This document shows, piece by piece, positions 4,254 to 44,114 of a DNA stretch of 64,000 nt. Both the position numbers and the translations under genes were made by a program. Where the stretch lies: the NCBI RefSeq assembly GCF_054482525.1, contig NZ_CM137006.1; one strand, 5' to 3'. Within the stretch, counting starts at the first letter, position 1, and the number at the start of each line of letters is the position of its first letter. The notes beneath the pieces were generated by a model, which had not been told where the DNA came from, made no database searches, and saw only the letters and a list, made by a program, of their open reading frames with translations.

Positions 4254-4985
4254 ATGAAGATGTTGCGCGATCCGCTGTTCTGGCTCATTGCTTTGTTTGT
4301 GGCACTGCTTTTCTGGCTGCCTTACAGCCAGCCGCTGTTTGCTGCCTTGTTCCCACAACTGCCACGACCCGTTTATCAGCAGGAAAGCTTTGCAGCTCTG
4401 GCACTGGCTCATTTCTGGCTGGTGGGAATTTCGAGTTTGTTTGCGGTGATCATTGGTACTGGTGCCGGAATTATTGTTACTCGCCCGTGGGGCGCGGAAT
4501 TTCGCCCACTGGTGGAAACTATTGCCGCCGTTGGGCAGACTTTTCCGCCCGTTGCGGTGCTGGCGATTGCCGTTCCGGTGATCGGCTTTGGTCTGCAACC
4601 CGCGATTATCGCCTTGATCCTTTACGGCGTGCTGCCCGTCCTGCAGGCGACACTTGCCGGGCTGGGAGCGATTGATGTCAGCGTGACAGAAGTTGCGAAA
4701 GGTATGGGAATGAGCCGTGGTCAGCGACTGCGTAAGGTCGAGCTACCGCTGGCGGCTCCGGTGATTCTGGCGGGCGTGCGAACTTCGGTGATTATCAACA
4801 TTGGTACGGCGACGATCGCCTCAACGGTAGGGGCCAGCACGCTGGGTACGCCCATCATCATCGGGCTTAGCGGATTTAATACCGCGTATGTGATCCAGGG
4901 GGCGTTACTGGTGGCACTGGCGGCGATCATTGCAGACCGCCTGTTTGAAAGGCTGGTGCAGGCGCTTAGCCAGCACGCAAAATAA
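4254..4985 (+). CDS. yehW: ABC transporter permease
   Basis: 243-aa membrane protein and last gene of the operon. Confidence 0.85.
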
Positions 4986-5073
4986 AGGTATAACCTGCGA
5001 GCATGACGCCACCAATTCCGCCTAACGCCATAAACAGGAACAGGGCGATGACCCCAATTTTAGCTATGCGCAT
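4966..5073 (-). CDS. yohO: small (35 aa) single-TM membrane protein, [35 protein letters not shown]
   Basis: Short hydrophobic ORF on the minus strand that overlaps the 3' end of yehW by 20 nt. Position and sequence match my recollection of YohO, but it is a small protein and therefore uncertain. Confidence 0.45.
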
Positions 5074-5132
5074 AATGCACTCCTTATGTTAACGAAAGGA
5101 TTGTACAGTAAAGCGCATTTGTTAACGAATGA

Positions 5133-5864
5133 TTAAATGCCGAGTGGGAAAATATCATGGCCTTGTTCCTGCCAACTGGTAAGTTGCTGCTGTTGGGCAG
5201 AGGTTCGATTTTCACCGCACCACACCAGCAATGTACGGCCTTCGAACAGTTCAGGGCGTAGTTGATTGAGCGAGTGGGCGAGGACATCAATGCGCCATCC
5301 TTGTTGACTGGCAATCCAGCCCTCCAGCCACAGACGGGTGGTATCGTGAATATTCCAGCCAACCACCAGCGCATCTTTACCCTGTTTTTTACGTGCCGAA
5401 GCCAGACAAATGGCGATGTAGTTGATCAGTACGCCGTCGAGGATCGCCAGCAGCGCCTGGAGAGTCGGTTGTTGGCACTGAAGTCGTCGGCGCAGAGGAA
5501 TAAACAGATGCGTGGTGAGTGTCTGGGCGGGGTAATCCTGACCGCGCTCTTTGATCCACGTTCGCAGGCTATGCAGATTGCCGCTTTGCAGGTAAGTCAG
5601 TAATGTTTCTTGCTGATCGCGCCAGCCGTTCTGCACATCAACATTTTCATTACTGAGCAGCATTTTAACTTTGCTGACCTGCACGCCGTTGTCGATCCAG
5701 CGTTTGATCTCGCGGATCCGGTCAATATCGGCATCGTTGAACAGCCGATGGCCGCCGTCTGTTCGTTGCGGTTTCAGCAATCCGTAACGCCTCTGCCACG
5801 CGCGTAACGTGACAGGGTTAATATCACAAAGCAACGCCACTTCACCAATTGTGTAAAGCGCCAT
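5133..5864 (-). CDS. mlrA: MerR-family transcriptional regulator (curli/csgD activator)
   Basis: 243-aa protein with an N-terminal MerR HTH (YTIGEVALLCDINPVTLRAWQRRYGL). The position between yehW and yehU fits. Confidence 0.85.
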   Translation of the reverse strand: MALYTIGEVALLCDINPVTLRAWQRRYGLLKPQRTDGGHRLFNDADIDRIREIKRWIDNGVQVSKVKMLLSNENVDVQNGWRDQQETLLTYLQSGNLHSLRTWIKERGQDYPAQTLTTHLFIPLRRRLQCQQPTLQALLAILDGVLINYIAICLASARKKQGKDALVVGWNIHDTTRLWLEGWIASQQGWRIDVLAHSLNQLRPELFEGRTLLVWCGENRTSAQQQQLTSWQEQGHDIFPLGI

Positions 5865-15046: not shown

Positions 15047-16135
15047 TCACGGCAGGCGGTGGCGAGCTTGATAATAAGCCTGCCAGTGAGCTTCTTTATG
15101 TGTGGCGACGCGCTGTTCGAAGTAACGGCGCAGACGCGCGCGATCTTCTTCGTTATCTTTGACGATGGTTCCGGCAATACAGTCCACCAGGTCGGCAGGC
15201 TCCCCCGCGCGATTCGCTAAAAACCAGGCGCGGACACCCACAGCATGGGCCACGTTAACGGCTTCAGCGGTGGACATAATCGCTGTCAGTGTATCCATTG
15301 ACGTTTTCTTTTCGCCGTTGGCACGCAGATCGCGGAACGTGCGCACCAGTAATTCCAGTACCGTGTCAGGCACTTTATGCGGAATACCGCTATGGGCCAG
15401 CAAACGCGCCGAAGCACTGGCGACCAGTTCCAGCTCCTGGGCGAAATCCATAATCGGAAAGACAGTTTCAAAATCGAAGCGACGCTTTAGCGCAGCACTC
15501 ATTTCATTGACGCCGCGATCGCGGGTATTGGCAGTGGCAATAATATTAAAGCCTTCTCGCGCATAGAGCTGACTGGCTTCACCAGTGAGTTCCGGCACCG
15601 TCATTACCCTGTCAGAAAGCATACCTAACAGACAGTCTTGTACTTCCAGCGGTGTACGCGTTATCTCTTCAAAACGGACAATTTTGCCGTCGCGCATTCC
15701 CTGGTAAAGCGGGGCTGGGACCAGCGCTTCCGTTGACGGACCATGGTTGATAAGCAGGGCGTAGTTCCAGCCGTACTTGATTTGATCTTCAGTGGTAGAT
15801 GCGCCGCCCTGGATGGTTAACCCGGCATCGCCGCTAATAGCGGTTGCCAGTAATTCAGACAGGAGAGATTTTGCGGTGCCAGGTTCCCCCACCAACATCA
15901 AACCGCGCCCGGTTGCGAGAGTGACTAACATGCGTTCGACAGCGGAGGGGCTAATCACGACTTTACGGCTAATATTTTGTGCTTCGTCGCCAAGGATAAA
16001 AGCGCGGGCCGCAGGCAAACTTAACTGCCAACCTGGCGGGCAAGGTGCGTTATCATTTTGTTTTAATTTTGCCAGTTCATCGGCGTATAACACAGCGGCA
16101 GGCGGACGCTGCAGATGATTATTCTGCGGTGACAT
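15047..16135 (-). CDS. yehL: MoxR-like AAA+ ATPase
   Basis: 362 aa from MSPQNNHL. Walker A motif LMLVGEPGTAKS. The RBS aggga lies upstream. Confidence 0.8.
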   Translation of the reverse strand: MSPQNNHLQRPPAAVLYADELAKLKQNDNAPCPPGWQLSLPAARAFILGDEAQNISRKVVISPSAVERMLVTLATGRGLMLVGEPGTAKSLLSELLATAISGDAGLTIQGGASTTEDQIKYGWNYALLINHGPSTEALVPAPLYQGMRDGKIVRFEEITRTPLEVQDCLLGMLSDRVMTVPELTGEASQLYAREGFNIIATANTRDRGVNEMSAALKRRFDFETVFPIMDFAQELELVASASARLLAHSGIPHKVPDTVLELLVRTFRDLRANGEKKTSMDTLTAIMSTAEAVNVAHAVGVRAWFLANRAGEPADLVDCIAGTIVKDNEEDRARLRRYFEQRVATHKEAHWQAYYQARHRLP

Positions 16136-16242
16136 ATATTCATCCCTGAAATGTATTAATGAAATAAACGATATTTTACGCGCAATAAATGTTTGGCGCA
16201 TTAGTTGTTTGAGCGAAAAATATCTGGAAAGCAGATCACAGT

Positions 16243-16335
16243 AAATAAAAAAACCTGCTGGTGAGGCAGGTTCTTTGATTTACTACTTTCAGGCCTAACA
16301 CCACGGCCTGTGCAACATCGTGTTCCAACGAACGA
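16243..16335 (-). ncRNA. orzO: candidate OrzO antitoxin sRNA (antisense to the zorO 5' UTR region)
   Basis: A minus-strand intrinsic terminator (stem cctgcctcaccagcagg plus U-run ending near 16246) sits upstream of and divergent from zorO. This is the architecture described for zor-orz loci. The ends given are approximate. Confidence 0.35.
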
Positions 16336-16567
16336 ATTATAACCATCGGTGGACCCCGTTGCAATTAAGATAATGAGATTTATAATCCTGACTGTTGGGA
16401 CGTTGCGCCGGATCGAACCCATTTCAAGTCCTGGCTACCGGACGGGTGGTGCCGCAGGTAGTGCCCTGATCCGGAGTGCAACATCGTGGTCCAACATACG
16501 TAAACCAGTATCGACAGGCAGTGTAAGGGTAAGGTGCTGGTGTTGCGCTCCTTAATAAGGAGAGCGA

Positions 16568-16657
16568 ATGGACACGCTGACACAAAAGTTAACCGTGCTC
16601 ATTGCTGTACTGGAGCTATTAGTGGCTCTGTTACGGTTGATTGATTTGTTGAAGTAA
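16568..16657 (+). CDS. zorO: type I toxin, 29-aa hydrophobic peptide MDTLTQKLTVLIAVLELLVALLRLIDLLK
   Basis: Short ORF with RBS aggagag, immediately followed by a strong intrinsic terminator. The peptide matches my recollection of ZorO from E. coli O157:H7. Confidence 0.7.
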   Translation: MDTLTQKLTVLIAVLELLVALLRLIDLLK

Positions 16658-16678
16658 TGGGCAAATTGAAACGCAACT

Positions 16679-16709
16679 AAGGGGGAAAACCGCTTCCCCC
16701 TTTAATAAA
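16679..16709 (+). terminator. rho-independent terminator after zorO (gggggaaaaccgcttccccc + T-run)
   Basis: Perfect GC stem and U-run seen in the sequence. Confidence 0.75.
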
Positions 16710-16852
16710 ATGATTACATCTTCCATTAATTCACCCGATAACTTTTTTCATATTTATAAATTCATCGATTTTATAATCAACGTACTATTTGGCCGGGATG
16801 TGAATAATCATGGTGGGCTATTGGCGAAAAATATCTGGAAAGTAGATCGTAG

Positions 16853-16945
16853 AAAATAAAAGAACCTGCTGGTGAGGCAGGTTCTTTTATTTACTACTTT
16901 GATGTTAAGTTACTGATAGTGCAACATGGCATCTCAACGAACGAA
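16853..16945 (-). ncRNA. orzP: candidate OrzP antitoxin sRNA
   Basis: Counterpart of orzO in repeat unit 2. The terminator stem is conserved but the U-run is weaker. Confidence 0.3.
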
Positions 16946-17176
16946 TTATAACCACCGCTGGACCGTGTTGCAATTAAGATAATGAGATTTATAATCCTGA
17001 CTGTTGGGAAGTTGCGCCGGATCGAACCCATTTCAAGTCCTGGCTACCGGACGGGTGGTGCCGCAGGTAGTGCTCTGATCCGGAGTGCAACATGGCGACT
17101 CAACATACGTAAACCAGTATCGACAGGCAGTGTAAGGGTAAGGTGCTGGTGTTGCGCTCCTTAATAAGGAGAGCGG

Positions 17177-17266
17177 ATGGACACGCTGACACAAAAGTTA
17201 ACCGTGCTCATTGCCGTACTGGAGCTATTAGTGGCTCTGTTACGGTTGATTGATTTGTTGAAGTAA
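17177..17266 (+). CDS. zorP: type I toxin paralog, identical 29-aa peptide
   Basis: Second copy. Same ORF, RBS and terminator. Confidence 0.7.
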   Translation: MDTLTQKLTVLIAVLELLVALLRLIDLLK

Positions 17267-17287
17267 TGGGCAAATTGAAACGCAACT

Positions 17288-17318
17288 AAGGGGGAAAACC
17301 GCTTCCCCCTTTAATAAA
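17288..17318 (+). terminator. rho-independent terminator after zorP
   Basis: Same hairpin and T-run as in copy 1. Confidence 0.75.
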
Positions 17319-17387
17319 GTAATATTCTATTAGTTGGTTGAATATATTCTGTAGTTTACGATTAAAAATTGCTATTACAGTTTCAGG

Positions 17388-17639
17388 TTATTCACCTCGT
17401 AATTTCCGCTCATCAATACACTCATCTCTTATATAAATCAACGCATCATTTATTAGCGGGTCAACATCCTCTCGATCACGTTGATGAAATGTTGGACGTA
17501 GCCGGAACCGTTCCAGTCGGTAAACGGAACCTGTAAATAATTCAGAGCATTTATGGATCTCAAGTCTGAAGGAAAACGGATCTTCAGGTACAGGGACCTC
17601 ATAATTGTAAATAGCGACCAGCTCTTTTTGCACGCTCAT
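17388..17639 (-). CDS. yehK: small hypothetical protein at the position of yehK
   Basis: 83-aa ORF between the zor repeats and yehI. Assignment rests on position only. Confidence 0.35.
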   Translation of the reverse strand: MSVQKELVAIYNYEVPVPEDPFSFRLEIHKCSELFTGSVYRLERFRLRPTFHQRDREDVDPLINDALIYIRDECIDERKLRGE

Positions 17640-36142: not shown

Positions 36143-36224
36143 CAACCAAACGACTCGGGGTGCCCTTCTGCGTGAAGGCTGAGAAATACCCGTATCACCT
36201 GATCTGGATAATGCCAGCGTAGGG
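36143..36224. repeat. attL-like 82-bp direct repeat: duplicated 5' part of the thiM TPP-riboswitch aptamer
   Basis: Identical to 44033..44114. It lies between rcnR and an integrase gene. Confidence 0.85.
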
Positions 36225-36307
36225 GGCCAAAATAGTCTTGAAAATTATGTGGTTGTATCTCTTTTTGACCATAAATCATGCTGTTAAGGTACAAAAAGGG
36301 GTCGTTT

Positions 36308-37615
36308 ATGAGGTCAAGAACTCTCCCATACACATTTCAGCGAAACGGTAATTACTATCTACAAATCCGGCTTTCGGATGGTCGGATATACAAAAAATCA
36401 CTTTTTACTGACAGTTATCGCGAAGCATCGGCGTTGATGATTGGCCTTACTCCGCACATTCCTTTCGTTAAATCACTCGCTACTCCGTTGCCGCAATTTA
36501 ATAAGTTTGTTTCAAACTTGATCGCTTCGTCACGTAACGTAATGATTCCGTTGCCACTCCCTCAGCAATTGAACAATATTTCTAAAGAAGTTTTGCAGCT
36601 TCAACCACCAGCCAAACCGGAAAAGGTACTAACACTTGCTGATGCGTGGGCTATGTACAAGGAGGAAAGAGGTCGAAATTGGACAAAATCGATCTCAATA
36701 GCAAATGAGCGTTATATGGAGGTATTGCTTGTTGTCTTGGGAAAAGAAACAGACGTAACGGCAATCACCAAACAAGATATTAAGCGAGTAATGGAAACTG
36801 TCGAAAACTTACCAAAGCGTGTAGTGCAACCGTATAGGTCAATGACTATTCAGCAACTAATCGAATGTGATGATGTGCTGCCAGAGGATTTAGTTGGTGC
36901 TGAGGCTGTACATAAGCACCTTAAAATCTACAAATCGTTATTCAAAACATTTCTGACTGAAAACAAAGATATTCTATCTAAGTCTCCGACTGATGGAATA
37001 GTAGCGGCACCATCCAAAGCTAGGTTTGGTGCATACAGTGCAGCAGAAATGAAAAAATTTGTAGGATGGGCACTAAAGCAGCCTGATGGATGGCAGAAGT
37101 GGATCACTTTGTTGTTGGCGTACACAGGAGCCAGAAGAGGTGAGATTGCTAAACTGGAGAAGTCGCAGATCAAATTTGATGAAGATAGCCAGCGGCACTA
37201 TCTTCTGATCGCGGAAAGAAGGCTGGGTAAAACTGAGAATGCTACAAGACAGGTAGTGATTCATCCCAAACTGATTGAGTGGGGGTTTCTGGATTTTGTT
37301 AACCGCCAATGGAAAGAGAAAATCTTTTCGGAAGTCTCAGGTCGAAATATGTCAAAGATAGGTAAAGTTCTTTCAGATGTTCGTGATCAGCTTGATATTC
37401 CTTATCTTGATGATTATGGGCAGCGGCGCTTGGTGCATAGTTTCCGGCATACTATGATTTCTACTTGTTTAGCTGGTTGGGTGAGTAATTTGGCGCATCT
37501 GCAACAGGTGGTAGGTCATGAAAAGAGTGGAGTAGGGATTACCCAGCGTTATCTGCACACATTCCCACTTTCCACCGTTTGTTATGTGATCGATGGTCTT
37601 TGTTGGGAGACTTAG
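36308..37615 (+). CDS. tyrosine-type site-specific integrase
   Basis: 435 aa from MRSRTL, using the start downstream of RBS aaaagggg; the alternative start is at 36278. The C-terminal catalytic region has R...HSFRHT...Y (VHSFRHTMIS, ITQRYLH) and sits next to an att repeat. Confidence 0.8.
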   Translation: MRSRTLPYTFQRNGNYYLQIRLSDGRIYKKSLFTDSYREASALMIGLTPHIPFVKSLATPLPQFNKFVSNLIASSRNVMIPLPLPQQLNNISKEVLQLQPPAKPEKVLTLADAWAMYKEERGRNWTKSISIANERYMEVLLVVLGKETDVTAITKQDIKRVMETVENLPKRVVQPYRSMTIQQLIECDDVLPEDLVGAEAVHKHLKIYKSLFKTFLTENKDILSKSPTDGIVAAPSKARFGAYSAAEMKKFVGWALKQPDGWQKWITLLLAYTGARRGEIAKLEKSQIKFDEDSQRHYLLIAERRLGKTENATRQVVIHPKLIEWGFLDFVNRQWKEKIFSEVSGRNMSKIGKVLSDVRDQLDIPYLDDYGQRRLVHSFRHTMISTCLAGWVSNLAHLQQVVGHEKSGVGITQRYLHTFPLSTVCYVIDGLCWET

Positions 37616-37743
37616 TTATTCGTGTATCCTTCTTAGTGTATAACCAGCTAATAATTTGTAGATTTTTATTGTCTGAGATCAAAAATTTTCACAACTAATT
37701 TACAATAATAACTTAAGATGAATTTAGGCTTAGTGAGTCTTCT

Positions 37744-38469
37744 ATGGTTAAAAATTTAGGCAAAAAATACAAGTATGGCGATCAACCGATAAGAGCTATT
37801 ACCATACAGATAATTGCTAATCAGTTTGGTGGGGCTGCAACGGCTAAGCAGGTAGATGATTATCTTAGAAAGCTATTTCCATCTTATAAAGATAATACTT
37901 GGCTCAATTTAATTGCTAATACAGTTAATTGTAAGCGGAGCTACTGGAGTTTCAACAAAACTGCCCGACGAACTGATGATGTAACTCATCGGCATCATAA
38001 GTATGACCGATTGTTCAAGCGTGGAAATATTTTTGAAATCTATCAACCATCTGTGCACGGTATTTGGGAATTATACCAGGATTTAGAAGGGATGTGGCGT
38101 TATCGTCAAGTAAAATCGGTTTTCGAAGAAGCTGTTGAGACGGCTGCAAAATTATCTTCAGTGGAACGAAAGCAAATTTTAGCGACAGAAAGTAAAATCC
38201 CGGAACTAATCGAAGTAACAACACGAGTTTATAAACGAAGCCCATATGTAGTTGCTGAAGTTCTTTTGAGAGCAAATGGAAAATGTCAATATTGTAAGCG
38301 AGATGCTCCTTTTCTAAAGGAAGATGGTACTCCATTTCTAGAAGTTCATCATATTGAGTGGCTTTCAAAGGGGGGGGAGGACTCTGTGGAAAATGCTATT
38401 GCATTATGTCCTAATTGCCATAGACAAGCCCATTATGGCGATCTGACATTACTACCTGTTAATAAATAG
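37744..38469 (+). CDS. McrA-like HNH endonuclease (putative type IV modification-dependent restriction enzyme)
   Basis: The C-terminal motif CQYCKRDAPFLKEDGTPFLEVHHIEWLSKGGEDSVENAIALCPNCHRQAHYGD is a close pattern match to the McrA HNH region. The N-terminal roughly 150 aa are unrelated to any family I recognise. Confidence 0.55.
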   Translation: MVKNLGKKYKYGDQPIRAITIQIIANQFGGAATAKQVDDYLRKLFPSYKDNTWLNLIANTVNCKRSYWSFNKTARRTDDVTHRHHKYDRLFKRGNIFEIYQPSVHGIWELYQDLEGMWRYRQVKSVFEEAVETAAKLSSVERKQILATESKIPELIEVTTRVYKRSPYVVAEVLLRANGKCQYCKRDAPFLKEDGTPFLEVHHIEWLSKGGEDSVENAIALCPNCHRQAHYGDLTLLPVNK

Positions 38470-38546
38470 GCTTGATGAAAGTTCTATTTCTATATTTTTC
38501 AATATACAAATTTCCCCAAAAACGGCGTGAATATCACGCCGATCAA

Positions 38547-38894
38547 TCATACTTCAGAACACATACTCAATGTGTAAACAGCCATCTCCCCATCGGGATT
38601 AGAAGGGCGTAATACAAATATCGGTATACTGCCATTGTCAATGTATGTGGCTGCAACCCCTCCGTCAGGTGTAGCATACATCTTTGCGATGCTTTTTTGA
38701 CCTACAAAATCAAGTCTCCAAGTTTTACCGCCAAGATTTATGGTCATTTTTTTATCTTGTATATCAAAAGTTGAATCTACAGAAACTTTCTGACTTCCCG
38801 AGTCAATATGACCTTCCTGTATTGCTTTACAGGAAAAGGTTGTGGCGTGGCCCATCACTGGAATTAACAAAGCGGCAAATACTAGTTTTTTCAT
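38547..38894 (-). CDS. small secreted protein (signal peptide MKKLVFAALLIPVMGHA)
   Basis: 115 aa from MKKL. RBS aagggagacaa. Convergent with the HNH gene. Confidence 0.5.
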   Translation of the reverse strand: MKKLVFAALLIPVMGHATTFSCKAIQEGHIDSGSQKVSVDSTFDIQDKKMTINLGGKTWRLDFVGQKSIAKMYATPDGGVAATYIDNGSIPIFVLRPSNPDGEMAVYTLSMCSEV

Positions 38895-39004
38895 TTGTCT
38901 CCCTTGGTGTGTCAAATGGATGGTGATGCTAATAATACATGATTGATTCAAAATGTCACGATTAGTGCGTGGTTAATTGGTGCGTCAAATTGCATCTTTG
39001 TGCC

Positions 39005-39469
39005 ATGCGAAAGAATCTGAGATACCTTTTTGGACAACGAGTAAAAGAGTTCCGTATAGCTATTGGCTTAAGCCAAGAGGCCTTTGCAGATCGGTGTGGT
39101 TTTGCACGTAGTTATATGAGTCGAATTGAGCGTGGTTGCTCTAATGCATCTCTTGATGCAATTGAGGTTCTGGCTGACGCTTTGCGTATTGAGCCTTGGC
39201 AGTTACTGGCTTCTGATTCAAGGAAACCTGATGATCAGGAGGTACTTGTTCCTTATGCTGCAGATGGGTCGTGTTTTCATCCAGGATTGGCAAGTACTCG
39301 CGATGGTTCGTTTAGAGTAGGGGAAAAATCAGCCCAGAAACGTTTCAGTTCGTTCAATGAAGCTCTCGAATACCTTCGTGGAATGGAAACCGCGAAGTGG
39401 CGTAGGCCTAATGCTAGTGGTAATTGGGGAATTGTATCTGCGGTTAAATGGGATCGACTGAATCAATAA
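39005..39469 (+). CDS. XRE-family HTH transcriptional regulator with a C-terminal extension
   Basis: HTH reads LRYLFGQRVKEFRIAIGLSQEAFADRCGFARSYMSRIERG. 154 aa. Confidence 0.65.
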   Translation: MRKNLRYLFGQRVKEFRIAIGLSQEAFADRCGFARSYMSRIERGCSNASLDAIEVLADALRIEPWQLLASDSRKPDDQEVLVPYAADGSCFHPGLASTRDGSFRVGEKSAQKRFSSFNEALEYLRGMETAKWRRPNASGNWGIVSAVKWDRLNQ

Positions 39470-39635
39470 GATATCAGTAATTTTCGGGCCACTCCACAAG
39501 GCAATAAGTGGCTTAGTGGTGATTATCGAAGGGGAATACAAGCGAGCACCTAGGCACCATTGCAAGAACCGCTCAACGCTGAGATCAGCAAGCCCCGATT
39601 TTTGCCGACCGTCCCTGTCAAATATCAAGGAGGCA

Positions 39636-40187
39636 TTACGCCACCTGCTCTTTCTTGATACGTTGCACCGTCTGCGTGCTGACACTGAAATCTTTTGCTA
39701 CGCTCCGAATTGAGCCACCATTCGCGAGAGCGGCAGCAATTCCCGCTCGATCAATTGCTTTTCCATTACCACGTTTTGCTATACGTCCAGCGGCCTTGGC
39801 TGCGGCGATCCCTTCACGTTGACGCTCAAGCATCATTTCACGTTCCATTTGTGCCACTGCTGCAAGAACTGTGAGCATCATATTCCCTGCGGGAGAGTTC
39901 TTTCCTGTCTTAAAGTCTTCTTTATGGAAATGCACAGACACGCCGCGCTTTGTTAATTGCTCTACAGTTGCCAGAAGGTCGGCTGTATTACGACAAAGGC
40001 GATCAATACTATGGACGTGTAACACGTCACCCTCCCGCACATAGTTCATCATTGCCTCAAACTGTGGGCGCTGAGTGTTCTTGCCTGACGCTTTATCTTC
40101 AAAGACTTTATCAAGAGTTACTCCTGCTAATTGACGGTCTGTGTTTTGTTGCACAGTCGATACCCTAATGTATCCAATATTAGCCAT
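39636..40187 (-). CDS. small serine recombinase (resolvase/invertase family)
   Basis: N-terminal catalytic motif IGYIRVSTVQQNTDRQ with the active-site Ser. The C-terminal HTH reads SIRSVAKDFSVSTQTVQRI. 183 aa. Confidence 0.8.
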   Translation of the reverse strand: MANIGYIRVSTVQQNTDRQLAGVTLDKVFEDKASGKNTQRPQFEAMMNYVREGDVLHVHSIDRLCRNTADLLATVEQLTKRGVSVHFHKEDFKTGKNSPAGNMMLTVLAAVAQMEREMMLERQREGIAAAKAAGRIAKRGNGKAIDRAGIAAALANGGSIRSVAKDFSVSTQTVQRIKKEQVA

Positions 40188-40219
40188 CTTCTTTTTTCTT
40201 CTGTATTGATTTGTGTGTA

Positions 40220-40325
40220 GTGATTATTGAACGTGTTGATTAGGTGTGTAAAGTACTTTTTTCACTACGAAATTCGAAGTTTTTTAGTGTGGTGATTTAG
40301 CCTGCCTTATCACTACACTTCTTGC
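40220..40325. promoter_or_regulatory. candidate res/recombination site: clustered inverted copies of GTGTAGTGAT(T/A)A just upstream of the serine recombinase gene
   Basis: Motifs found at about 40226 (gtgtagtgatta), 40262 (tcactacg, inverted), 40283 (agtgtggtgatt) and 40309 (atcactacac, inverted). The arrangement resembles multi-subsite res sites. Confidence 0.3.
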
Positions 40326-40571
40326 ATGAGAATCATGTAGTTACATTTTGGTAAAATTAGCAAGCTATTAAATTGTGTGTTTATTTTGAAAAAATAATTT
40401 TTGTTGCATTAAAGAAAACTTGTTCGACAAATAATAGGTTGATTTTTGATCAATAATTTCTGATAGTGCTCTGTAAGCCGCATTACACAAGGCGCAGCGA
40501 AAGTGATGTAAAAGTGAAGAAAGCTAACATTGCACTTTTAAACTACTTTTCATTGAATTTTTTAGTATGGA

Positions 40572-40644
40572 ATTACACAGGAATAAGTTAGGGATATTCT
40601 ATGATTTACACAGGGAATATAGGGGGATTATGGTATTACACAGA
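40572..40644. repeat. three spaced (a/t)ttacacag motifs, 33 and 31 bp apart, upstream of the iterons
   Basis: attacacagg at 40572, tttacacagg at 40605 and attacacaga at 40636. Possible protein-binding array (DnaA- or IHF-like sites or Rep auxiliary sites). Confidence 0.35.
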
Positions 40645-40673
40645 GTGAGTGCTATGTGATGATTGGTAGTAAC

Positions 40674-40783
40674 GGTAGGTCACTGTGAACTAGGGGGGTA
40701 GGTCACTGTGAACTAGGGGGGTAGGTCACTGTGAGCTAGGGGGTAGGTCACTGTGAACTAGGGGGTAGGTCACTGTGAACTAC
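40674..40783. repeat. five tandem 22/23-bp iterons (TAGGTCACTGTGAACTAGGGGG), putative replication origin
   Basis: Copies start at 40676, 40699, 40722, 40744 and 40766. They are directly followed by an AT-rich tract of about 90 bp (40784..40870) made of ataataagactat-type repeats, a candidate DNA-unwinding element. There are no spacers, so this is not CRISPR. Confidence 0.85.
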
Positions 40784-41884
40784 AATAAGACTATAATAAG
40801 ACTATTAATAAAACTATATTAGATTATTAATTAGATCATAATAATAATATTCTTTATATCTATATATATATGATCTTTTGCCTTCCGGCGTTAGCTTCAC
40901 TCTCTGGCAAGCAGCCTTACTCCGCTACCTTTCGGGCTACGTTGGCTGGCCCGTTCCGCTCACACCGAAAGCAAAGCGTTACTTTCTTCGTGTAACTTCG
41001 TTGGCGGTAACGCCCACGAAGGAATACTATTGCGCTGTGCGCAGTAAGAGTAATCACCTAACCAATCATCTGATTGCTTACGTGTTAACTCTCTCTAACT
41101 CTTAATTACCCTCCTACATTTAATAACTCTCGTTATTCTCTGTAGTTGTGTAATTACTCGAAGAGAGAGCGGCTAAAGCTCAATTACACTCTGCTTTCCT
41201 CGTGTAATTTCACTAAGCCTCAATACAATTTCACTTCCTACATTCTGTAGTCGTGTAATTGTTTTCGGTGGAAAAGCCAGAGGCGACACCGAAAGAGAAT
41301 TCTGATCTTATTAATCTTATCTATCTTAGTTATCTTACTTACTTTATCTACTTTATTATTAATAATAGCTTTATAAGCTCTCTGTGTAGCTCTCTGACGC
41401 AAGAAACAGAGTTCAGGAAGGGAATCACCTTAGAAAAGTGTTCTTTGCGTCATAATGTGTTTTATGAAGGATTCAGAGGTGTTTCATAACAGAGATGTAT
41501 AGAGGATACTTTAGGTAATTAAAAATAAGGGGTCTAAATGCTTCTCTAACAGCATTAAGCAGGGTAGAGAATGGAAACCGCTTTGCCTACATATATAAAC
41601 TCACTACAGGGCTTTACAGAGCGTTTTATAAAGTGACTCTCTGTTTTATATCTACCATCACCTTTTCATATACCTAACAAATACAAAATAAGCCCCTTAA
41701 ATAAGCCTCTGGCGAGCTAAACAGCCATTACATAAGAGAATGTATTGCTTTTATCAAAACCTCGTTAGAACGCGTTTTAGAGCGTTTTAGCGGATAATGA
41801 AGAATAGCACTACACAGGAGAGCACGAATTGCTAAGAAAAAATGTAACTACATGAAAAAGATCAGATTTTTTGTGAAAAGGTAT

Positions 41885-41913
41885 TGACAAACGTCTCTTT
41901 CTGTGCAATAATA
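41885..41913 (+). promoter_or_regulatory. sigma70-like promoter (TTGACA-17-AATAAT) for the small-gene operon
   Basis: Consensus -35, 17-bp spacer and an A/T-rich -10, located about 125 bp upstream of the first ORF. Confidence 0.4.
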
Positions 41914-42038
41914 GGTATTAGAGGGACAGGAATAGATTCTTATCCTCTAAATAATTAAACCAATGCACCGCACTTTGAAGCCCAAGGCTTGTAAGGTGTG
42001 TTTTTTCTTTTAACCAAATAGAATAAGGAGGCTAATTA

Positions 42039-42227
42039 ATGAAATATTTTACTCCACAGGATGTAGTAGAAGCCTGGAAACGTGGTGAGATCAACCGCTT
42101 TAAAGTAAGGATGTATAGAAACACCGCTCGCCGTTGTGGTTATCCAGAGCGTGAAAAATGTTTTGACGATGCACTAAAAATTATTGATGAACTGCGTAAA
42201 GCTGAGAAAGAAGCAGAGAAAAAATAA
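42039..42227 (+). CDS. hypothetical 62-aa basic protein
   Basis: Strong RBS aaggagg. It is the first gene of a tightly packed 4-gene operon. Confidence 0.45.
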   Translation: MKYFTPQDVVEAWKRGEINRFKVRMYRNTARRCGYPEREKCFDDALKIIDELRKAEKEAEKK

Positions 42228-42249
42228 TAGACAAGAGAAGGAGAAAACT

Positions 42250-42417
42250 ATGAGCGAAACTAAGAAACCAATTCCGCGCACTTACCTACACGTTGACCCT
42301 GAAATCTTCAAGGTTTTATTTGCTGAAGCCAAGAAAAGGCAAATTATGGTCAGTGATTTGATGTTAGAAATCATTACTGAAGCAGCAGAGAACATCAAAC
42401 AAAAAAAGGGTAAGTGA
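42250..42417 (+). CDS. 55-aa putative ribbon-helix-helix (CopG/Arc-like) DNA-binding protein
   Basis: RBS aggag. Its size and the N-terminal beta-strand (PRTYLHVDPEIF) followed by two helices look RHH-like. This is an inference from sequence pattern only. Confidence 0.35.
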   Translation: MSETKKPIPRTYLHVDPEIFKVLFAEAKKRQIMVSDLMLEIITEAAENIKQKKGK

Positions 42418-42468
42418 TCCTCATTCACTTTAGTAGCGCATTAAGCGTGATTTATAAGGAGATTTTTA

Positions 42469-43158
42469 ATGATTAATCAACTAACTTTTACAAAACACTA
42501 TGACACGTTTGATAATGTATCAAAGATTTATTCTGATAAATTCCCTCAAGGAAAAGATTTAGATCTATTACATATTGTGCTTTATTTTCGATTCCTTAGT
42601 TATCAGGAAAACAACCTTAATTGTTATGAAAGTCACGAAACATTAGCTAAGATTTTTAAGTCTTCAGCGTCAACAATTAAACGTAAGATAAACGATCTTA
42701 AAGAGATGGGATTATTAGAAACATCCCCACATCCTGATCCGTATATTTCATCTTTGATTTACAATGCTCTCCCTCTCACAGATGCACATATTACTCCCCC
42801 AGGAGAATCATCACTCTCTGATCTTTCTGAGGCAGAAGAAGCACAGGAACAACCTAAAGGCCATAAACAGCCTTCTTTTGATGTTCTTGATGATTGGGAT
42901 ACGCCTTTACCCTGGGAGACGGAAGAAACACCTGTTTCATCAAGTGAAAAAGTAGCTAATGATAATGAGGAGGATGTGTTAGAGAATTTTGCCTCTCTTA
43001 TCATCCAGGAGAAACACACAAGAACAGGAGGAGCATCATTTATTGAGTTTGCAAATTCACTAGCTTGTAGATACGGGCTAAAACGACCAAATGGTATTGA
43101 GGCATATTTTTCTAAGAATTACCCAAATATATACGATGACTTTGATATTCCATTTTAA
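42469..43158 (+). CDS. 229-aa winged-helix protein with an acidic disordered C-terminal half, candidate replication initiator
   Basis: HTH-like segment HETLAKIFKSSASTIKRKINDLKEMGLLE. Strong RBS taaggag. It is encoded downstream of the iteron array. No recognised family without a search. Confidence 0.4.
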   Translation: MINQLTFTKHYDTFDNVSKIYSDKFPQGKDLDLLHIVLYFRFLSYQENNLNCYESHETLAKIFKSSASTIKRKINDLKEMGLLETSPHPDPYISSLIYNALPLTDAHITPPGESSLSDLSEAEEAQEQPKGHKQPSFDVLDDWDTPLPWETEETPVSSSEKVANDNEEDVLENFASLIIQEKHTRTGGASFIEFANSLACRYGLKRPNGIEAYFSKNYPNIYDDFDIPF

Positions 43159-43169
43159 TAAGGAGGGTT

Positions 43170-43415
43170 ATGATTCAATATTTAGTAAAAAATCAAGTAG
43201 ACAGAATTCAGTGTAATGACACAGGAAAACGCATCTACGAGACACTTGTTTACCTCTATAAAGGAAAGCCAACACCGCTAAAATATAGCGATGTGTTACA
43301 TCGAGCAGGTTGCTCTGAGTCAGGTTTAAAATTCTGGCTGAAACAGCTATCAAATTTCGGTGTTATTGAAATGAAAGAGCTGTCTTTTTCTACATTCAAC
43401 CTCAAGAAGTTATAG
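43170..43415 (+). CDS. 81-aa putative winged-helix DNA-binding protein
   Basis: RBS aaggaggg. The segment DVLHRAGCSESGLKFWLKQLSNFGVIE resembles a wHTH. Confidence 0.4.
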   Translation: MIQYLVKNQVDRIQCNDTGKRIYETLVYLYKGKPTPLKYSDVLHRAGCSESGLKFWLKQLSNFGVIEMKELSFSTFNLKKL

Positions 43416-43580
43416 AAAATAGAATTCATCTATTCCACGCTCTAATTCTATTTCTCTGTTTAATATAAAAGGAAAACATTATTATGGTAATAGCTATGTG
43501 GTGGTTGTTGTTTTTTATGCTCGTAGAAACATATGCAAGTAAGTCTGGAAAACAAAAATAATATATTGATGATTTGTTTT

Positions 43581-43820
43581 TTATAACTTCGTGGTGTCAA
43601 GTCCAGCAGCTTTGAGTCGCTCGGTAAGATTTCTCATTTTGCTGAACTCTGTACCAAAGCTGGCTTTAAGTCCTACACCTTCACAAAACTCTTTTGCCGT
43701 AACCTTTTTCAGATGGTCAGCATATTTGATCATCTGGAGGTGCATTTCCATCGTTTGGCTATTTCGTGGTGCGCTGCTAATGGCTTGCTTAATGTTCTCG
43801 TAGATCTGGGTTTCTGTCAT
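43581..43820 (-). CDS. 79-aa hypothetical protein, convergent with the operon, at the island right end
   Basis: RBS ggtgag. No recognised family. Confidence 0.4.
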   Translation of the reverse strand: MTETQIYENIKQAISSAPRNSQTMEMHLQMIKYADHLKKVTAKEFCEGVGLKASFGTEFSKMRNLTERLKAAGLDTTKL

Positions 43821-44032
43821 TTTTTATCTCACCTATCAAATTTAGATAAATAATATAAATTAGCAAATTAAGATAATCAATAGTTTTTATCATCTGAATG
43901 ATAGATGTTAAATGTTTCTTTTTCATTTCTGATATGGGGTACAAAATGGGGTACACAGAGAAGAAGCAATTAATGGAGGCGAGCTTGCATCTGCAAGCCA
44001 CTTCCCCTAAGCTGGCACAAAATATAGAGATT

Positions 44033-44114
44033 CAACCAAACGACTCGGGGTGCCCTTCTGCGTGAAGGCTGAGAAATACCCGTATCACCTGATCTGGATA
44101 ATGCCAGCGTAGGG
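44033..44114. repeat. attR-like 82-bp direct repeat (5' part of the native thiM riboswitch)
   Basis: Identical to 36143..36224. It is contiguous with the remainder of the thiM leader. Confidence 0.85.

Follow-up and report, generated by a model that had tools for sequence, protein, structure and literature searches.

The 64-kb window, i.e., the whole stretch of DNA that we analyzed, contains two copies of a repeat unit composed of an orz gene, divergent promoters, and a zor gene. The two copies are flanked by yehL (15047-16135, minus strand) on one side and by a yehK-like frame (a pseudogene; 17286-17639, minus strand), followed by yehI, on the other. Unit A (16213..16713) occupies the yehL-proximal slot and unit B (16824..17320) the yehK-proximal slot. 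A repeat search delineated them by two pairs of direct repeats, one of 300 nt with 94% identity (16310-16609 and 16919-17218, spacing 609) and one of 77 nt with 92% identity (16213-16289 and 16824-16900, spacing 611). Over 470 aligned columns, the two units are 92.9% identical, and a 0.5-kb repeat at 93% identity cannot have originated by chance. An earlier note on this DNA had described two near-identical units of about 0.5 kb between yehL and yehK, which agrees with what we found: the units are spaced by 609-611 bp and lie between yehL and the yehK-like frame. Its term "tandem duplication" holds for the presence of two units but not in the strict head-to-tail sense, as a unique, AT-rich spacer of ~110 bp (16714-16823) separates units A and B. 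The yehL-yehK slot is the same in E. coli O157:H7, PCN033, O103:H2, and the other strains examined, and E. coli PCN033 matches our 1,251-bp locus query with 100% identity.

Both units encode an identical 29-residue ORF on the plus strand, with the product MDTLTQKLTVLIAVLELLVALLRLIDLLK, as found in the ORF listing (zor A, 16568..16657; zor B, 17177..17266). The peptide is hydrophobic, with a GRAVY value of 1.4. The string published for ZorO is, letter for letter, the 29-aa product of both ORFs (PMC6669753), and the yehK-proximal zor gene of E. coli O157:H7, from our own extraction, encodes a product identical to both peptides found here. Sequence comparison confirmed that the product of zor B carries alanine at position 20, and not the serine of ZorQ. 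An AAGGAG ribosome-binding site (RBS) precedes each ORF, located at +164..+169 in both units. The earlier note had thus correctly described a hydrophobic 29-aa peptide with an RBS in each unit; it had also linked the peptide to ZorO/ZorP of E. coli O157:H7, and the identity to the published ZorO and to the O157:H7 product confirms this link.

The promoter scan located the zor A promoter at 16359..16386 (plus strand; TTGCAA, 16 nt, TATAAT), which is identical in unit 1 of O157:H7. The orz A promoter lies back-to-back with it at 16336..16364 on the minus strand (TTGCAA, 17 nt, TATAAT; 10/12 match) and overlaps the −35 element of zor. The corresponding pair of unit B, orz B on the minus strand and zor B on the plus strand, was found back-to-back at 16945..16995 by the same scan. 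All four promoters possess TTGCAA/TATAAT hexamers, which have been reported for >99% of zor/orz loci (PMC11264685, Table 3), and the orz and zor genes are arranged divergently without overlapping.

We placed the zor transcription starts (16394 and 17003) 174 nt upstream of each ATG, following the published length of the 5′ untranslated region (UTR). With these starts, the positions of GGAGTG and AAGGAG equal the published ones in both units. The zor A 5′ UTR (16394..16567, plus strand) accordingly comprises 174 nt, with GGAGTG at +80..+85 in the EAP/standby region and the RBS within a predicted CUCCUU/AAGGAG hairpin, as judged against the published landmarks (PMC5397157). The zor B 5′ UTR (17003..17176, plus strand), also 174 nt, has the same landmarks as unit A. 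In the predicted MFE fold of the full-length zor A mRNA, nucleotides 9-22 would pair with approximately +74..+89, and the RBS would reside in a hairpin. In the predicted fold of the variant lacking the first 28 nt, the 5′ clamp is gone; since the MFE represents a low-frequency structure and the centroid differs, the opening of the EAP should be read qualitatively.

Downstream of each ORF, the repeat search and folding revealed a hairpin with a perfect 9-bp stem and a weak T-tract, AAGGGGGAA-AACCGC-TTCCCCCTT, followed by just TTT before AATAAAA. It lies at 16679..16702 in unit A and at 17288..17311 in unit B (both plus strand), where it reaches into the 3′ end of the yehK-like frame, which runs convergently. 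The earlier note had considered it a perfect intrinsic terminator. The perfect 9-bp stem bears out the first half of this description; the T-tract is weak, and the consensus terminator scan did not call the zor 3′ hairpin as a terminator on the plus strand.

On the minus strand, the Rfam model RF02083 (OrzO-P; gathering score, GA, 60) matches twice over its full length, at 16247-16322 with 91.9 bits and at 16858-16931 with 90.2 bits, and no further OrzO-P match was found in the 64-kb window. The orz A gene (16247..16329, minus strand) would produce an RNA of ~83 nt of the orzP type, in which the 5′ pairing segment GUUGGAACACGAUGUUGCAC is followed by a Rho-independent terminator (16276->16248 in the terminator scan; fold z = −2.49). 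Its start at 16329 was inferred from homology to the published OrzO 5′ end, and its 5′ 22 nt are identical to those of orzP in EHEC and K-12. The orz B gene (16858..16938, minus strand; fold z = −4.56) would produce an RNA of ~81 nt with the 5′ end GUUGAGAUGCCAUGUUGCACU, representing a third type, probably orzQ. The orz hairpin of unit B falls outside the criteria of the terminator scan, yet it lies within the Rfam match. Each Orz RNA is predicted to fold into a small 5′-proximal stem-loop and a strong terminator hairpin. Further Rfam matches below threshold, such as those to ohsC_RNA, STnc370, and Trp_leader, all derive from the terminator hairpin, and we set them aside; among them, the orz region of unit B matches ohsC_RNA weakly (35.4 bits, GA 50), carried mainly by that hairpin. 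The earlier note had placed a minus-strand terminator about 320 bp upstream of each ATG, consistent with the ends observed at ~16247 and 16858. It had also proposed a divergent antisense RNA of ~80 nt with ends near 16246 and 16856. The OrzO-P matches substantiate the divergent small RNA, but it is not antisense by overlap: the genes do not overlap, and the RNA would act in trans by pairing to 20-21 nt of the zor 5′ UTR.

The earlier note itself had named a REP/IS-like element as the outcome that would overturn its interpretation. Such a non-coding repetitive element without genes could account for an intergenic repeat with hairpins in which RefSeq annotates nothing. However, the locus neither is dispersed in multiple copies nor carries terminal inverted repeats or a transposase ORF, the sole inverted repeats found in it being the terminator hairpins. 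The locus query matches 5,236 of 5,426 complete E. coli genomes somewhere, with 7,094 of the 7,098 matches on chromosomes and 4 on plasmids, a median of one per genome, and all fetched loci in the single yehL-yehK slot. Moreover, a curated sRNA family is matched above its gathering score, and the encoded peptide has been characterized experimentally. We therefore rejected the REP/IS-like element, to which we attach a negligible probability. The region is almost certainly a chromosomal zor-orz type I toxin-antitoxin locus of Escherichia, consisting of two complete modules with different pairing codes. No RefSeq feature is annotated in the yehL-yehK intergenic stretch in the records opened, because neither Pfam nor NCBIfam offers a model for ZorO; scans of the 29-aa peptide against both collections matched no family. 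Automated annotation thus misses two toxin genes and two sRNA genes within a 1.1-kb intergenic stretch.

Among known systems, the closest is found in E. coli O157:H7 EDL933, where zorP-orzP and zorO-orzO lie in tandem (Fozo, 2010; Wen, Won & Fozo, 2014, PMC3919570; Wen, 2017, PMC5397157). The locus described here resembles it in the yehL-yehK slot, the presence of two modules, the ~610-bp spacing, the promoters, the 174-nt UTR, the RBS position, and the 29-aa toxin. Judged by its nucleotide sequence, unit A has the orzP/zorP pairing code: it shares the Orz 5′ end and the target site with EHEC orzP/zorP of the EDL933 z3290 type, with 96.8% identity over the unit (96.8-97.0% to the P-type units of O157:H7, O103:H2, and others). 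Unlike EHEC ZorP, which carries serine at position 3, its peptide possesses Thr3 as in ZorO. Unit A is therefore of the P-type by its RNA pairing elements and of the O-type by its protein.

Unit B differs from EHEC zorO/orzO in its pairing code (GUUGAGAUGCCAUGUUGCAC versus GUUGGUACGAAAUGUUGC) and in the Orz body. It carries a third code, probably that of the zorQ/orzQ type, a locus type whose peptide ZorQ is an A20S variant (Shore et al., 2024, PMC11264685). This assignment derives from unit 2 of the O103:H2 strain PV16-126, which encodes the A20S ZorQ and shares with unit B the same Orz 5′ end and target at 98.7% identity (98.7-98.9% when unit 2 of assembly CM135829 is also considered). In contrast to ZorQ, unit B retains Ala20 and hence encodes the ZorO protein. 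Neither unit is the zorO/orzO allele sensu stricto of the EDL933 z3289 type, as the OrzO 5′ end GUUGGUACGAAAUGUUGC (V1 triplet GAA) and the matching target are absent; the identity to the EHEC zorO/orzO unit is 86.9% for unit A and 88.2% for unit B. The zorO/orzO-like label in the earlier note consequently applies to the ZorO peptide and the zor-orz family and not to the allele, given a P-type unit A and a probably Q-type unit B. With a fourth pairing code found in strain PSUO2, at least four codes (O, P, Q, and PSUO2-like) circulate in E. coli.

The two modules differ in how their RNAs would pair. The target of Orz A in the zor A UTR, GTGCAACATCGTGGTCCAAC, spans +83..+102 (16476..16495, plus strand) and pairs through 6 + 13 Watson-Crick pairs about one A·G mismatch. 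The target of Orz B in the zor B UTR, AGTGCAACATGGCGACTCAAC, spans +82..+102 (17084..17104, plus strand) and pairs through 6 pairs, one A·A mismatch, and 14 pairs including one G·U. Functional pairing has been reported to require 15 uninterrupted pairs, or 17 if one internal mismatch is present (PMC3919570), and both cognate pairings exceed this threshold, with 19 pairs, 6(1)13, in unit A and 20 pairs, 6(1)14, in unit B. The duplex energies computed with RNAduplex are −34.0 kcal/mol for Orz A/zor A and −34.4 kcal/mol for Orz B/zor B, versus −21.3 and −22.6 kcal/mol for the cross duplexes between units. Comparing the duplexes of units A and B, we identified four positions with compensatory double changes and one with a one-sided change to G·U.

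These data also bear on the idea that both Orz RNAs regulate both toxins, so that the duplication would provide dosage instead of insulation. The Orz 5′ ends indeed have GUUG...AUGUUGCAC in common, which leaves 9-10 contiguous pairs in the cross combinations, and the predicted cross duplexes still amount to −21 to −23 kcal/mol. However, 9-10 contiguous pairs with several mismatches fall below the published thresholds (PMC3919570), and the cross energies resemble that of OrzP × zorO, for which RNAduplex gives −20.1 kcal/mol and which did not repress in experiments (PMC3919570). The clustering of the compensatory changes in the target site further argues for selected specificity, and we consider such cross-regulation very unlikely. 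In the zor-orz papers cited here, we found no repression test of the Q-type pair. Since the pairing codes of units A and B differ, each Orz is predicted to silence its own zor alone, which would make the two units insulated modules.

The DNA itself shows the elements, the landmark positions, the complementarity of each Orz to its own target, and the poor complementarity across units. What is said on toxicity, 5′ processing, the standby model, and the role of RNase III comes from published work on zorO-orzO of O157:H7. For the zorO-orzO pair of EDL933, overproduction of the Zor peptide is toxic and the cognate Orz rescues the cells, in an RNase III-dependent and Hfq-independent manner (PMC3919570). 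The EAP region at +73..+102 with its GGAGTG/AG motif is opened by the loss of the first 28 nt of the 174-nt UTR, in which the RBS at +164..+169 resides in a stem (PMC5397157). The first ~18 nt of Orz pair with the 3′ part of the EAP, which blocks translation and brings about a decay that depends on RNase III but not on Hfq (PMC3919570; PMC5397157; PMC11264685). We infer that the alleles described here share these properties and are expressed by this strain, even though the published experiments concern the zorO/orzO allele, whose pairing code is unlike that of both units. A single chromosomal copy caused no phenotype in MG1655 (PMC9860968).

By analogy, a sigma-70 promoter in each module would drive a zor mRNA composed of the 174-nt 5′ UTR and the 29-aa ORF. 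ZorO would act as a hydrophobic inner-membrane peptide, whose overproduction may depolarize the membrane and deplete ATP. The primary zor transcript is expected to be poorly translated because the RBS would be sequestered in the local hairpin and the first ~28 nt would clamp the EAP at +73..+102. Loss of these 28 nt would free the EAP, the presumed ribosome standby site containing GGAGTG, and increase translation. The Orz RNA of ~80 nt, transcribed from the back-to-back divergent promoter, would use its single-stranded 5′ end to pair in trans with a stretch of 20-21 nt on the 3′ side of the EAP. This pairing presumably blocks standby loading and leads to RNase III-dependent decay, for which Hfq may not be needed. 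In the tisB-istR1 and shoB-ohsC type I systems of E. coli, as in zor-orz, the sRNA is encoded divergently without overlap and acts in trans on a long 5′ UTR; they also share an inactive primary transcript activated by 5′ processing and the standby-site logic (PMC5397157). In contrast, their toxins show no sequence homology to those of zor-orz. We know of no LexA control of zor-orz.

How could two nearly identical modules retain different pairing codes? From promoter to terminator of zor, units A and B differ at only 9 of 350 columns, and 5 of the 9 differences fall into a single 7-nt window of the target site, a clustering reached by 5 of 200,000 random placements in a permutation. Outside the target site, the zor transcript part is ~99% identical between the units. 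A possible explanation is that selection on a short "address code" keeps the two modules orthogonal, with gene conversion homogenizing the remainder while the 20-nt Orz/zor duplex diversifies in a compensatory manner. We give this explanation about an even chance of being right. Six of the 11 private sites of unit A and three of the 5 of unit B match the sister unit, with just four P-type and two Q-type units as references; on this small panel, the private-site test is suggestive of gene conversion between the sister units. Variation of the pairing region as a bar to cross-talk has already been stated (PMC11264685). If the address-code explanation is true, only the P-versus-Q insulation and the signal of concerted evolution would be new.

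The earlier note had stated that the locus is absent from K-12. This is correct for the toxin: K-12 (O16:H48) possesses neither the zor target site nor the toxin ORF. It keeps, however, the orz terminator, an intact orzP, the two promoters, and ~30 nt at the start of the zor UTR. This orz-only locus, OrzPmg, resembles unit A in the 5′ pairing segment, the promoter hexamers, and its position beside yehL, and differs from it by the loss of everything past these ~30 nt of the UTR. OrzPmg was detected in MG1655 by northern blot, and the orz-only class has been described (PMC11264685). An evenly spaced listing of our matches contains four states with broadly similar frequencies: two copies (~1,250 bp), one copy (~560-640 bp), orz alone (~370 bp), and an empty site (~74 bp). 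They are consistent with the published shares of 42%, 25%, 30%, and 3% (PMC11264685). The suggestion in the earlier note that the copy number varies between isolates is therefore borne out by the four states and was already on record.

To estimate how common the pairing types are, we used 44-nt queries over the Orz 5′ region against the 5,426 complete E. coli genomes. The P-type region, including orz-only strains, is present in 4,676 genomes, the O-type region in 1,262, and the Q-type region in 855. The combination of P and Q is therefore common, considering the counts for these two types. With the full 83-nt orz A as the query, megablast matched just 123 genomes; this frequency was discarded as unusable, as private SNPs break the 28-nt seed words.

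The wide distribution of orz raises another possibility, namely that the modules, though their sequences are intact, have ceased to function as toxin-antitoxin systems, with Orz and perhaps the zor mRNAs having a toxin-independent regulatory role. Orz-only loci are widespread, K-12 orzP is fully conserved and expressed without a toxin (PMC11264685), and the P-type count given above far exceeds the number of genomes with a toxin in the slot. Furthermore, the non-toxic ZorO variant R23L still improves growth in kanamycin (PMC9860968). Nevertheless, both units possess an intact ORF, RBS, and promoters, and each pairing site varies together with its Orz, a pattern expected only under selection on the Orz-zor interaction. 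A toxin-independent role would also add to the toxin-antitoxin function, not replace it. We consider the loss of the toxin-antitoxin function unlikely.

The zor-orz family, its mechanism, the copy-number variation, and the allele types are all already published. The present locus contributes a clean P/Q pair, along with a hint that the sister units may have evolved in concert. The pair provides a clean natural case of paralogous sRNA-target pairs set apart by four compensatory changes, and it could serve as a convenient substrate for elucidating the specificity rules of trans-acting antitoxin sRNAs.

Beyond the strains discussed above, an exact-match scan of species-representative genomes detected the zor core in Shigella flexneri, Escherichia sp. 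MOD1-EC7003, and E. whittamii. The Shigella flexneri units have indels in their Orz 5′ ends, to which a fixed-register pairing does not fit. E. whittamii carries P- and O-type units.

The zor-orz modules are embedded in a region in which the existing annotation is silent. PGAP annotated zero genes in the zor-orz intergenic region (window 16201-17330), where neither a toxin CDS nor an sRNA was found among the PGAP features of the RefSeq records of the compared loci L001, L003, and L004. ZorO is also without a model in Pfam or NCBIfam, so RefSeq annotation systematically misses the zor-orz locus.

On the yehL side, the Orz A terminator is located upstream of yehL on the same strand, with only about 110 nt between the terminator end and the yehL start codon (window 16247-16135, minus strand). 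Judging from this spacing, hypothetical read-through from orz A would enter the yehLMPQ operon, the products of which are a MoxR-type ATPase, a DUF5682 protein, and VWA and SWIM proteins. On the other side, the 3′ end of a yehK-like reading frame (window 17286-17639, minus strand) overlaps the zor B terminator hairpin, which is encoded on the opposite strand. This frame is interrupted by a stop codon after residue 83, and the annotation of E. coli PCN033 lists it as a pseudogene; strain PapRG-06-3 carries an intact version of 117 residues. YehK comprises 105-106 residues in K-12 and O157, compared with 117 residues elsewhere; because the 3′ end of the frame enters the zor B terminator hairpin, the YehK C-terminus differs according to which state of the zor-orz locus a strain carries.

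Further kinds of Orz 5′ ends were observed among the compared loci. The single zor-orz unit of E. coli PSUO2, located at about 1488 of the compared locus, is 95.3% identical to the Q-type and has a fourth kind of Orz 5′ end (GTTGGGGCGCCATGTTGCAT) opposite a Q-type target site, the pairing of which contains G.U pairs and one mismatch. Two zor-orz units were also identified in Shigella flexneri (CP182557.1; about 4600-5800 of the compared locus), one of which is missing the intact 29-residue ORF. Their Orz 5′ ends are unusual and shorter (GTTGGTACCATGTTGCAC and GTTGGTCAAATGTTAGCAATCA), and the two units do not fit the fixed-register Orz/zor pairing analysis. They may represent either decay or a further specificity type of Shigella.

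The assembly NZ_CM135829.1, labelled “DH5alpha”, carries the full two-copy P+Q locus, whereas derivatives of K-12 have orz only. The label is probably wrong, or the strain does not derive from K-12; a discrepancy of the same kind among DH5alpha assemblies has been noted (PMC11264685).

Elsewhere in the window, we found a 7,890-bp island (36143-44114) with a perfect direct repeat of 82 bp at either end (36143-36224 and 44033-44114); each copy comprises most of the thiM TPP riboswitch. The two riboswitch copies score 61.3 and 71.2 bits, both above the Rfam gathering score for TPP. In PCN033, a tyrosine integrase adjoins the first riboswitch copy, and the other island genes encode an HNH endonuclease, an HTH protein, a recombinase-family protein, and several hypothetical proteins. 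The island looks like an integrative element with the riboswitch serving as its att site. Among the 5,426 complete E. coli genomes searched, most have the empty rcnR-riboswitch-thiM site, and only 64 contain the island at a coverage of at least 80%.
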